NCBI GenBank assembly: GCA_964016885.1
Contig: OZ024760.1
Location: forward strand, 124,001-188,000
Direction: 5' to 3'
Length of the DNA: 64,000 bases
From: Eledone cirrhosa
Taxonomy: Eukaryota
The notes beneath the pieces were generated by a model. That model saw only the letters and a list, made by a program, of their open reading frames with translations. It did not search any database and was not told where the DNA came from. Positions 47,101-52,830 of the stretch are shown here, one piece after another. The first letter of the stretch is position 1; every line of letters begins with the position of its first letter. The position numbers and the translations under genes were made by a program.

Positions 47101-47810
47101 ATGGAATACAGTCTGTTGTAGTTACACAGTCTGTTGTAGTTACACAAACACACACATGCATACATACACACACACACATGTATACACACTATATATATAC
47201 ATACATATGTATCATCATCATTTCATTTTACATCCGCTTTCCCTGCTTGCAAGGGTGGGACGGGAACTGATTTTGGCTTGATTTCTACAGCTGGATGCCC
47301 TTCCTAACACCAACCTCATTTACAGTGAGTGCTGGGTGCTTTTTTGCCGTGGCGCCTACACGTCCACTTTGCAGTGGAATGATAGGGACCCCAGTCCCTA
47401 TCATCTCATTTCTACAGCTGAGTAAACTGGAGCAATGTGAAATAAAGTGTCTTGCTCAAGGAAACAACACATCACCCGGTCTGAGAATTGAGCTCACAAC
47501 CTTTCGATTGCAAACCCAATGCTCTAACCAATAAGCCATGTGCCATATATATATATATATATATATATATATATATATATATATATATATATATATATAT
47601 ATATATATATATATATATATATATATGTATATATATATATATATATATATATATATATATATATATATATATATATATATGCAAAAGTTTTATTTAAAAT
47701 TGTTGGGTTACAACAAGTAAATATTTTATAACTGATATAAAGCACTCGACAAGTTTTGGAGTAGATATACGATATTAAACAAATGGAAACTATATTTATA
47801 AAACCATATT

Positions 47811-47876
47811 TATTTCATTATACATATTTCGGGGATACCATATTAAAAATATGGCATGCCTTCTTCAGATAAAATA
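47811..47876 (-). ncRNA. Type-I hammerhead ribozyme (left arm copy)
   Basis: Mirror image of 52639-52704. Confidence 0.75.
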
Positions 47877-49313
47877 CGATATATAAACAGTTTTATAAAT
47901 AATTTTGACGTACCATAAATATTGAGCAACCGTTATGTAGGAAGCTGGTTTGGTAGTGAGATGCTTATAAATATTTAGTGTTAAGCACAGTTAAAAAGAA
48001 AGACGGAGAAAAAGAAGAAATGTATGTAAAGAAAAACAGAGAGAAATAGAGAGAGATAGGGGAGAGAGAAATAGTGAGGAGGTGAAAAAAGAGATGCAGC
48101 TGAAGGCAACAGATGAATAATAATAATTCATCATACAAAATTGAGAGATTTAGGAGGGAGGGAGTACTGTAATTATTTAGTTATAGTGTTAAGGACAGTT
48201 ACGGAGGAGACGGAGAGAAATAAAAAATGAAGAGAAAACAGAGAGAGAGAAAGATAGAGGTGGGGGGGGGGGAGAAAGAGGTAGAACAAATAATAATAAT
48301 TATATAGGGGGAGGTGAAAATCAAGAGAGAAATACAAGAGAGAAATAGGAGAGACAGATACATAGACTTCATCATATATAAAGAGGGAGAAGAAGAAAGC
48401 TATATCTAGAGAGAGGGATGATAGATTTACATCTTTATGTTATGTCCTATCAATTTGAATTATCAATTCATATGAACTGGGTAATATAATGTAAATATCA
48501 ATATTCATGAATGAGACATAGATATATAATGTGTGAAAATAATTTTGCTCAATAATGACCATATGTTTAGTTTAAAATTCTGAGGTCGATGTATCAAAAA
48601 CTGAGATAAAAACTTCAAAAAAATATATAAGTATATACATACACATGCACTTTCCGGAAAAGGAAAGAAAGAGAGAAAGAGAAGGTTATCTCAAGAAATT
48701 ACAGAGTTGATCACGTAAAATCATAAAAATCATGCGTATGTCTATAATAGACATACGCATGATTTTTATGATTTTACGTGATCAACTCTGTAATTTCTTG
48801 TTTCACAAAAAAAAAAAAAAATTTTTTTTTCCTTGTGTTATAAAAGATTTCACTATACATAAAAAAATAAACGATTAATATTCTTGCCCTCACATACATG
48901 ATTATCGTTCATGTATAGAATATTATGCATATCTGTAACATATCCAGAACTATACCCACACATACATATAGGTATATATGTATATATATATGCACACATA
49001 CATGTACATGGACAGATAAAATATACTCTGTAATCATTCCATATGCATATTAATACATATGGCCTTTGTACAGAGACAACCAGATATCAATATATCAGCA
49101 CAGAAATATCGAAACGTTAAAATATTTTCATCACTCCCTAGAGTATCTCGGGCCACAAAAAACACAGTATACCCCCTATATCAACCACAGAAATCTACCC
49201 TTCCAATTTATCTGACAATATATTGCCAAGTTCATTAGAAGCAATCAGAATCAAAAAGCAAACAAAAAACCAAAAATTACTCAACAAAACTCATTTAGCA
49301 GAAATCATTTAAA

Positions 49314-51014
49314 CCCAAGATCAATATGAAAGATCACAAAAGAAATTTTGAAAATGATTTGCCAGTCAGATTGATTGCACCATCAAAATCTGACCTGGGT
49401 AAACTTAGCAAAAACATTCTAGACAGGGTGATACAGCAAATTAAAAACTTACATAATTTACCTAACTTAAACTTATGGAAGGGAACTGGTGAGGTTATTG
49501 AGTGGTTTAAAGAAATTAAATATAACAATAATAATAAATTTATTCAACTAGATATTGCTAACTACTATTCATCTATTACTCCTAATCTACTGAATAAGGC
49601 ACTAAATTACGCATTCAAACATACAGACCTAACTAGCAATGAAATGCACATTATATTATCGGCAAGGAAAACATTGATAGAATTTAATAACCAACTATGG
49701 ACTAGGGCAGATAGAGATAATAATTTCGACATTACTATGGGATCATCTGACTCAGCTCAGGTAACGGACCTTGTGGGCCTATTTATAATTAATTCGCTGC
49801 ATGGTGTAACCGGAGGATTATATCGTGATGACATGCTTTTACTTATTGAAAATAATAACTCTGAACTAAATAGAAAAAGAAAACAAATTATACAATTTTT
49901 TTAATTACCTTAATCTAAAAATAGAAATAGAGAATAACCATAGAATAGTCAATTTCCTAGATGTAACACTAAATCTCAACACATGTCTTCACTATCCATT
50001 TCACAAACTAAATGAAAACTTGAATTATGTCAATTTTAACTCTAATCACCCCAGATCTGTTAAAAATACTATAGTGAACTCTGTTCAAGAACGTATCTCA
50101 ACAATTTCATCTAATAAAAATATTTTCGACGAAAAAGCGCAGTATTACAATGAAGCGTTAGCTAGAGCAGTGATAAAATTAGCTAGAGCAGTGATATAGT
50201 GATAAAATTAAGTACATCGATAATAATAGGCAAACTAACCAAAATAATAACAATTTTAATTACGGTAACAACTTTAACAACTATAATAGAAAACATTACA
50301 ATAATTCCAAAAGCCGGAAAAGAAATAGAACTAGAAATATAATATGGTTTGCCCCCCCCCCTTTCTCACTAAATATTAAAACCCACATTGCTAAACTATT
50401 TTTTAATGCTCTTGACAAACGCTTCCCTAGAACACATAAATATCACTCAATTTTTAATAGACATACTATAAAATTAACTTACTCGTCCACCAAAAATTTA
50501 GCACAAAATATTAACAGAATAAATAATAGGAATCTAAAACCTAACCAAAATACGATAATAACCAAAACAATATTCAATTAAACAACTGTAACTGTAGAAA
50601 TAAATCTAAATGTCCGTTAAATAACAATTGCTTAGTTAAAAATATAATATACAATTGTAATGTTAAAACTAACTTAAATTCTTTTAACTATGTTGGTTCC
50701 ACCTCGATAGAATTTAAACTTCGCTACAATAATCATAAGAATTCTTTCACAGATCCAAACAAAAAATCTTCAACCTCACTATCAGGCTTACTCTGGCAAC
50801 TTAAACGAGATAATGTTGGGTATTCGATATTTTGGAATATTGTCTCAAGAGGGATTCCTTTTAATTCCTCATCTGAGACATGTGACCTCTGTGTGGAGGA
50901 GATATTCTTTATATTAAAATTAAAAATTCCCTTAATTTAAGGAGCAATTTATTCAGTTGCTGCAGACATAGATTGAACTCAACGTTTAAATATAAATATA
51001 AATTTAAAATGTAG
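49314..51014 (+). pseudogene. PLE reverse transcriptase + GIY-YIG endonuclease, frameshifted
   Basis: KDHK..F...RLI.PSKSD, LDIANYYSSI, DITMGSSDSA, GLYRDD, FLDVTL, SNHP; linker CNCRNKSKCPL; NIIY..YVGST..FKLRYNNH; CDLCVEE; CRH. Confidence 0.92.
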
Positions 51015-52638
51015 TATAATTAATTAAGATATTTAATTAATGTATGAAACCTGACGATAAATCTTTCGATTCCTTCAACTTTTTCAATTAATGATGTAAT
51101 TAAACTACTCTAAAATGTAAATGCTCCCAATCTATTGAATAAATTTTTTACGCAAGATAAACTTCTATACTAAATATAAGAGCATCCGTAGAACAACAGG
51201 GTCTCCTAAATCCTTTAAATGATTTCTGCTAAATGAGTTTTGTTGAGTAATTTTTGGTTTTTTGTTTGCTTTTTGATTCTGATTGCTTCTTGGCAATATA
51301 TTGTCAGATAAATTGGAAGGGTAGATTTCTGTGGTTGATATAGGGGGCATACTGTGTTTTTTGTGGCCCGAGATACTCTAGGGAGTGATGAAAATATTTT
51401 AACGTTTCGATATTTCTGTGCTGATATATTGATATCTGGTTGTCTCTGTACAAAGGCCATATGTATTAATATGCATATGGAATGATTACAGAGTATATTT
51501 TATCTGTCCATGTACATGTATGTGTGCATATATATATATACATATATACCTATATGTATGTGTGGGTATAGTTCTGGATATGTTACAGATATACATAATA
51601 TTCTATACATGAACGATAATCATGTATGTGAGGGCAAGAATATTAATCGTTTATTTTTTATGTATAGTGAAATCTTTTATAACACAAGGAAAAAAAAATT
51701 TTTTTTTTTTTTTTTGTGAAACAAGAAATTACAGAGTTGATCACGTAAAATCATAAAAATCATGCGTATGTCTATTATAGACATACGCATGATTTTTATG
51801 ATTTTACGTGATCAACTCTGTAATTTCTTGAGATAACCTTCTCTTTCTCTCTTTCTTTCCTTTTCCGGAAAGTGCATGTGTATGTATATACTTATATATT
51901 TTTTTGAAGTTTTTATCTCAGTTTTTGATACATCGACCTCAGAATTTTAAACTAAACATATGGTCATTATTGAGCAAAATTATTTTCACACATTATATAT
52001 CTATGTCTCATTCATGAATATTGATATTTACATTATATTACCCAGTTCATATGAATTGATAATTCAAATTGATAGGACATAACATAAAGATGTAAATCTA
52101 TCATCCCTCTCTCTAGATATAGCTCTTTCTTCTTCTCCCTCTTTATATATGATGAAGTCTATGTATCTGTCTCTCCTATTTCTCTCTTGTATTTCTCTCT
52201 TGATTTTCACCTCCCCCTATATAATTATTATTATTTGTTCTACCTCTTTCTCCCCCCCCCCCCACCTCTATCTTTCTCTCTCTCTGTTTTCTCTTCATTT
52301 TTTATTTCTCTCCGTCTCCTCCGTAACTGTCCTTAACACTATAACTAAATAATTACAGTACTCCCTCCCTCCTAAATCTCTCAATTTTGTATGATGAATT
52401 ATTATTATTCATCTGTTGCCTTCAGCTGCATCTCTTTTTTCACCTCCTCACTATTTCTCTCTCCCCTATCTCTCTCTATTTCTCTCTGTTTTTCTTTACA
52501 TACATTTCTTCTTTTTCTCCGTCTTTCTTTTTAACACTAAATATTTATAAGCATCTCACTACCAAACCAGCTTCCTACATAACAGTTGCTCAATATTTAT
52601 GGTACGTCAAAATTATTTATAAAACTGTTTATATATCG

Positions 52639-52704
52639 TATTTTATCTGAAGAAGGCATGCCATATTTTTAATATGGTATCCCCGAAATATGTATAATGA
52701 AATA
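52639..52704 (+). ncRNA. Type-I hammerhead ribozyme in the PLE 3' pLTR
   Basis: tattttat-CTGAAGA-aggcatgccatatt ttt aatatggtatcccc-GAAA-tatgta-TA-atgaaata. Confidence 0.75.
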
Positions 52705-52830
52705 AATATGGTTTTATAAATATAGTTTCCATTTGTTTAATATCGTATATATATATATATATATATACATATATATATATATATACATATATATACATAT
52801 ATATATATATATATATATATATATATATAC

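Follow-up and report, generated by a model that had tools for sequence, protein, structure and literature searches.

How does a retroelement copy come to carry its own 3′ end, inverted, in front of its coding region? The question is raised by a block of about 5 kb in the genome of Eledone cirrhosa, within a 64,000-nucleotide stretch (contig OZ024760.1 of assembly GCA_964016885.1, positions 124,001 to 188,000, forward strand) that we call the window and number from its first letter. An initial annotation had described the block as a Hydra-type Penelope-like element (PLE) forming a stem-loop with outward-pointing ribozymes. Our reading, to which we give a probability of about 0.7, is that it is a 5′-truncated, frameshifted copy of a Hydra-clade PLE inserted in (TA)n and preceded by its own 3′ end in inverted form. 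The inverted copy was likely made in one insertion, with both nicked target strands priming reverse transcription. The features are collected in Table 1.

Table 1. Features of the PLE copy and its target, in window coordinates
Feature	Position	Strand	Basis
(TA)n target, left; interrupted	47545–47680		sequence
3′ tail of the family, ~80 nt, antisense; collinear with left arm, absent from right end	47681–47764	−	contig bridge; depth; sister tail
Left arm: inverted, 5′-truncated copy of the element's 3′ end	47762–49313	−	arm alignment
Minimal type I hammerhead motif, left, outward	47811–47876	−	core at −47868; identical to right copy
Near-perfect 109-bp palindrome, left arm	48692–48800		fold, −82.5 kcal/mol
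Head-to-head junction, single	49313–49314		tblastn; self-complementary hexamer ends left arm
Open reading frame, RT-thumb-linker-GIY-YIG; 5′-truncated, ~180–190 N-terminal residues lost	49314–51014	+	tblastn with homologues
CxCx5C linker motif	50587–50613	+	motif listing
CxxC..E and N..CxH, endonuclease C-terminus	50881–50969	+	motif listing
3′ untranslated region, 1736 nt, low-complexity	51015–52750	+	sequence; X4 record 15 over 51089–51306
Right arm: last 1537 nt of the 3′ untranslated region, from 51214	within 51015–52750	+	arm alignment
Near-perfect 109-bp palindrome, right arm	51722–51830		fold; shuffle test
Minimal type I hammerhead motif, right, outward; predicted cut after 52696	52639–52704	+	core at +52647
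(TA)n target, right; 3′ end without tail	52749–52830		sequence

The element and its arms

The first point to note is the similarity of the two arms. The left arm pairs with 52753–51214 at 98.08% identity over 1559 columns (4 mismatches, 7 gap openings, 26 gap letters), confirming the near-identical inverted arms of ~1.55 kb that had been reported around a truncated open reading frame (ORF). One mismatch, at 47764, lies at the outer edge, and the three internal ones are at 47931, 48928 and 49171. Two pieces are found in the left arm only, one of 10 nt (47980–47989) and one of 8 nt (49229–49236), each with short microhomology beside it; the other five differences are of 1–2 nt, all in homopolymer or dinucleotide runs. 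The arms are separated by a unique loop of 1.9 kb, and the density of indels is alike in arms (7 per 2 × 1.55 kb) and ORF (4 per 1.7 kb). Both ends of the element lie in (TA)n, a target also seen for the sister-family copies at 6.3 and at 35.8 kb. We rejected A-to-I editing as the source of the arm differences: two of the three substitutions are A/G in the sense orientation, but the sample is three and one of them falls at a CpG.

Homology to the ORF begins in tblastn exactly at 49314, the edge of the arm, and the stop codon is at 51012–51014. Homologues align colinearly over 49314–50975, with the reverse transcriptase (RT) followed by a GIY-YIG endonuclease at the C-terminus in a single ORF. 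The frame is broken at ~49896, 50176–50197, 50552 and 50920, and the copy is now dead; reading through the four breaks with X gives 560 amino acids with no in-frame stop in the pieces. The indels at 49896, 50552 and 50920 set other copies of the family apart, whilst the break at 50176–50197 is a local templated duplication or rearrangement of ~20 nt. An Asn-rich stretch between RT thumb and linker (50210–50290) recalls the N-rich inserts of Adineta Penelopes, but is short.

Hydra elements are defined by a C-terminal GIY-YIG domain without CCHH, by a CxCx5C motif, and by CxxC and CxH around a conserved E and N; further traits are N-terminal RWK and DKT, (TA)n targets and a canonical hammerhead (PMC8557442). 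The linker CxCx5C and the endonuclease CxxC are both present, as the initial annotation had it, together with CxH; CCHH is absent from the window endonuclease in a listing of its Cys and His residues, and the window protein contains no match to the CX2-5CxxC linker. Pfam searches with the four ORF pieces returned nothing informative. The same motifs were counted in 162 homologues, using those that cover the relevant terminus. RW[KR] was found in 44 of 69, DK[TS] in 66 of 69 and DKG in none of these; CxxC..E and N..CxH were found in all 40 with a C-terminus, and the strict CxCx5C in 19 of those 40.

Identity over the RT piece is at best 53% to RWK/DKT-type homologues, compared with 22–26% to Neptune-type proteins. 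As an outgroup we used Neptune-type proteins, four of which had been fetched with a fragment from this window and labelled by motif rather than by database name. In a quick IQ-TREE run on the window protein, 46 of the 162 homologues (those of at least 600 amino acids) and three of the four Neptune-type proteins, the window protein, whose composition was flagged as atypical, sits in a six-row set with a Shimodaira–Hasegawa-like approximate likelihood ratio (SH-aLRT) support of 99. This set lies among the RWK/DKT-type rows, and the three Neptune-type rows stand apart at 100. Judged by eye, the RT blocks are like the published Hydra rows and unlike the Neptune rows, and the family differs from Hydra-1_Obim in both protein and hammerhead. 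An RT phylogeny against named reference clades had been proposed earlier; ours recovers the Hydra-motif grouping and splits off the Neptune type, with the published references compared by eye. The motifs and the nesting of the protein thus support the earlier assignment of the element to the Hydra-type PLEs. The family is apparently undescribed.

Origin of the inverted copy

The initial annotation also noted an extra ~80-nt segment outside the left arm. The segment exists, but it is not in sense orientation: read on the minus strand, 47681–47764 prolongs the 3′ end of the left arm into (AT)n, and so forms an antisense 3′ tail collinear with that arm. The border between arm and tail is bridged by X1 record 5, a contig from another copy (47699–47806, with 6 other letters and 2 gaps), and the X1 depth at 47753 is ~216,000. 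Another 6372 reads, from X8, enter (TA)n directly at 47765, matching the tail-less right end. Thus the family has two 3′ end types. The tail is 84–86% alike at 35925–35997, where it again ends in (AT)n. Evidence that the tail folds is weak: this copy scores z −0.9 to −1.0, short of significance, though the sister tail gives the same two hairpins at z −2.5 to −2.7. Several published Hydra consensi appear, by eye, to continue beyond a TA-like point and to enter a small hairpin motif. The tails of PLEs measure 30–40 bp and often occur on one end only (PMC8557442, PMC3846280). In vitro, a PLE protein of the Poseidon clade nicks and extends both target strands, and the tail was mapped between two RT start sites (PMC11167929).

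In the scheme that we favour, the GIY-YIG endonuclease would nick both (TA)n strands. One nicked end would prime at the inner RNA start site, without the tail, and copy 3.44 kb; the other, priming at the outer site and including the ~80-nt tail, would copy 1.63 kb; and the two truncated cDNAs would then be fused head to head at 49313/49314. Of the schemes considered, this two-ended priming gives the best fit, since the tail could not have come from copying the right arm. Since one head-to-head junction and two RT start points explain the layout, the multiple template switches proposed earlier are not needed. The 8- and 10-nt indels, too, have another explanation as microhomology-flanked losses from the right arm. 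Contig record 15 of X4 crosses 51214, which makes the right arm the native 3′ untranslated region (UTR), and the two pieces are kept in contigs (the 10-nt piece in X4 record 9, the 8-nt piece in record 15), so that both were lost from the right arm; for the 8-nt piece this follows from a letter count, 224 record letters lying over 218 window letters with 10 gaps. Of the arm positions at which other copies vary, 11 were checked, and at all 11 the left and right arms match, which points to one source for both.

The same observations bear on a scheme with a single reverse transcription, in which the RNA was copied with one switch to its own cDNA or to antisense RNA (fold-back or self-priming) and the right-end tail was trimmed at resolution. 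The variants common to both arms fit this scheme equally well, but a copy made on the present right arm would lack the tail and also the 8- and 10-nt pieces, which X4 records 9 and 15 indicate to be the family state. Self-priming from palindromes at inverted junctions has been proposed for PLEs (Arkhipova 2013, PMC3846280), and the left arm does end in a self-complementary hexamer; the junction here is, however, offset by 1.9 kb and has no long palindrome. As for the tail, it has been ascribed to endonuclease-mediated resolution (Craig 2021, PMC8557442), whereas in vitro it lies between the two RT start sites (PMC11167929). On balance we regard this scheme as unlikely.

The age of the copy can be judged from its ORF. 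Of 22 differences between it and other copies, 15 are synonymous, compared with 27% expected for random change (the 22 being the ORF rows among the best 40 of 572 rows, with 2 adjacent-codon rows left out). This excess suggests that the source lineage was under selection and that the copy is probably young, its distance to other copies being mostly sub-family divergence rather than decay. It also argues against an older single copy that later gained the inverted arm by DNA repair at (TA)n, or whose arms were homogenised by gene conversion, as do the tail on the left arm with none on the right end and, weakly, the lack of any nonsense codon in 560 amino acids (P 0.19 at 3% decay). Such a history would accommodate a substitution difference of 0.2% between the arms, against the 90–99% similarity of most related contigs (of 25645 X1 contigs placed, 11557 are at 90–95%, 7925 at 95–99% and 4025 at 99% or above), and two more perfect palindromes lie beside (TA)n in the window, at 30122–30357 and 52832–53675. 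Nevertheless, we hold it to be very unlikely.

Smaller copies with a related structure are also present. A 220-bp mini-copy of a sister family at 35776–36000 consists of (TA)n, an antisense tail-less 3′ end with a hammerhead, a junction, a sense tail and (AT)n; it is head to head like the main element, with the tail on the opposite arm. An antisense 3′-end stub of a sister family (6277–6365, 84% alike) ends in (TA)n. At least six joints, linking 47796–47812 to 52695–52713, resemble further mini head-to-head copies, weakly, their shorter side being 20–25 nt.

Several points weigh against our reading. None of the reads or contigs in the sets compared with the window crosses both arms or 49313/49314, and the arm differences are rich in indels (7, with 3 substitutions), so some of them may be assembly errors. 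The tree is a quick one, and the comparison with published references and with Penelope and Nematis rows was made by eye. RWK and DKT are not seen here, since both fall in the lost N-terminus. Rfam did not find the hammerhead at either gathering or E-value thresholds, and the lowest-energy fold of the monomer is not a hammerhead (z −1.2). The two-ended priming model would be an extrapolation from a different clade, and PMC3846280 argues for self-priming on an antisense template.

The extreme form of this doubt is that the inverted arm is an assembly artefact, from a fold-back read or a misjoin of two similar copies. No spanning read was found, the best sequencing run contains just 0.46 of the window words, homopolymer slips are frequent among the arm differences, and perfect palindromes adjoin (TA)n twice more in the window. 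An artefact would not be expected to stop at the two natural 3′ ends of the family, to carry two microhomology-flanked deletions on one side only, or to enclose a 1.9-kb unique loop; moreover, independent contigs support each arm separately, and the same layout recurs in miniature at 35776–36000. We therefore consider an artefact very improbable.

The long 3′ UTR and the predicted ribozymes

The 3′ UTR, estimated earlier at ~1.7 kb, measures 1736 nt, and the arms are long mainly because this region is long. Each arm contains a 109-bp palindrome, overlooked in the initial annotation, whose longest perfect stem is 54 bp, compared with 9 or less in 50 shuffles. Rfam miRNA matches were confined to this palindrome and the TA runs, below cut-off. 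Other copies, and a second organism as well, contain pieces of the UTR that are ~97–98% alike. The X1 depth is 17,000–43,000 over the 3′ half of the ORF, 1,000–8,000 per arm in most UTR bins and 41–196 around the palindrome, figures that we do not treat as copy number; masking and hairpin drop-out may lie behind the unevenness. No contig spans the UTR, and the full 1.74 kb may therefore be confined to a small sub-family.

Complete Hydra consensi are 2084–2729 bp long (PMC8557442), whereas the truncated sense part of this copy (49314–52750) alone measures 3.44 kb and so exceeds the ‘generally short’ (<3 kb) size given for Hydra, a descriptive rather than a diagnostic trait. Long 3′ spacers are reported for Pen1_Av, where 0.9–1.5 kb were captured from host DNA (PMC3846280). 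We found no long-UTR Hydra family in the literature searched, which excluded subscription journals and Repbase/Dfam, and the available portion of PMC13282606 does not mention Hydra. The somewhat unusual features here are the 1.74-kb 3′ UTR with its 109-bp palindrome and the ~80-nt tail, compared with 30–40 nt in published elements.

Motif and pairing, on which the identification rests, place a putative hammerhead near each end, both facing outward as first described. In the right copy, stem I would be 8 bp long, stem II would be 12 bp long and include a single mismatch, and stem III would have 3 bp capped by a 2-nt loop; the hand-drawn fold contains no non-canonical pairs, and its layout is that of File S2 of PMC8557442. 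Stem III is self-complementary in all three copies in the window, a property that marks hammerheads which work in dimeric form and are poor at cleavage on their own (PMC4209133). Whichever strand is transcribed, the RNA has just one sense ribozyme, and the duplex of the ribozyme with the antisense arm (−125.5 kcal/mol) is far stronger than the monomer fold (−13.3 kcal/mol), suggesting that the ribozymes would be silent inside the stem-loop. It is likely that the predicted hammerheads need a dimer partner, and in read-through RNA they would pair with the antisense copy. A role for the arms as a double-stranded RNA or ADAR substrate, raised in the initial annotation, is hypothetical; it would require read-through from outside, and the element's own 5′ end is missing. 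A second CUGANGA core lies just past the stop codon, at 51051, with an unconvincing hammerhead fold (z 0.09).

Surroundings and comparison with known PLEs

The right end of the element is adjoined by an inverted repeat (52832–53675) in which 131 of 131 unique bases are identical around ~570 bp of (TA)n, with the interruptions roughly mirrored. It could be an inverted duplication of the flank linked to the insertion, or an artefact. A perfect palindrome of 236 bp (30122–30357) directly follows another (TA)n run. Both palindromes are compatible with an artefact or with a wider fold-back process. Beside the left (TA)n, at 47410–47540, is a short interspersed nuclear element of a family that we take to be tRNA-derived, with further copies at 34826–34980, 59348–59503 and 29846–30000. 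This family and the microsatellite load suggest a cephalopod host. On the plus strand at 13615–16686, Pfam identified a long interspersed nuclear element (LINE) with an AP endonuclease, an RT and, immediately after the RT, a PHD finger. No host gene was recognised by Pfam among the 83 other open frames of at least 75 amino acids, a search that short exons would escape, and an intronic position is possible; the matches in these frames were pieces of LINE RT or endonuclease and two sub-threshold hits. A 26-nt motif from the 3′ end had 0 exact matches in the metagenome contigs scanned.

The family appears to be very abundant; its 3′ ends are of two types, and its head-to-head copies come in many sizes. 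A wider reading, which we think improbable, would have it produce palindromes at (TA)n throughout the genome by two-strand priming from two RNA start sites, between which the structured ~80-nt tail would lie, with the target flank sometimes copied back. If true, this would explain the 5-kb stem-loop, the 109-bp UTR palindrome and the palindromes at 30122–30357 and 52832–53675, and the family would be a source of hairpin RNAs on which ADAR or small-RNA silencing could act. Such a family is a test case for two-ended priming versus self-priming, an open question of PLE mechanism, and could show whether the two-start-site rule derived in vitro from a Poseidon element extends to the distant Hydra clade. 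The long UTR extends the range of sizes known for Hydra elements, a point relevant to repeat annotation.

In PLEs, 5′-truncated inverted copies are usual, as are tails on one side only, and the statement in the initial annotation that these elements often insert with inverted pseudo-long terminal repeats (pLTRs) agrees with the same sources (PMC8557442, PMC3846280). Its emphasis on unusually long arms was overstated, the layout being a published one, although the 3′ UTR and tail do exceed published sizes. The locus is a genuine head-to-head insertion of a PLE, well preserved but of an ordinary sort, with a UTR and tail longer than those published.

The copy shares with the Hydra clade (PMC8557442) an RT with a C-terminal GIY-YIG domain, CxCx5C, CxxC and CxH, the absence of CCHH, the (TA)n target and a canonical minimal hammerhead motif near the 3′ end. 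The inverted copy joined on the 5′ side has a parallel in Penelope-13_HM of the same clade, whose consensus includes a 966-nt inverted 5′ copy (PMC8557442). It differs from the Hydra consensi in its UTR palindrome, its ~80-nt tail and a full length that we infer to be ~4 kb because of the 1.74-kb 3′ UTR. Pen1 and Pen2a of Adineta vaga (PMC3846280) and PAc of Anolis (PMC11167929) are, in contrast, Penelope/Poseidon elements with a CCHH endonuclease and no CxCx5C; tails in that group are 30–40 nt and inverted pLTRs ~200 bp, and the Eledone copy has no direct 5′ pLTR.

The window also contains, on the minus strand at 60925–63500, a truncated Neptune-type PLE with a CX4CxxC linker, a CCHH endonuclease (62535–63000), a hammerhead core at −61040 and a low-complexity 3′ UTR of ~1.5 kb that ends in (TA)n, so that Hydra is not the only PLE clade of the window with long UTRs. 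With the Neptune clade our element has in common a Cys-rich linker, microsatellite targeting and a hammerhead in the 3′ repeat, whereas Neptune differs in its CX2-5CxxC linker, CCHH and DKG, in its 22–26% identity and in forming a separate branch with a support of 100.

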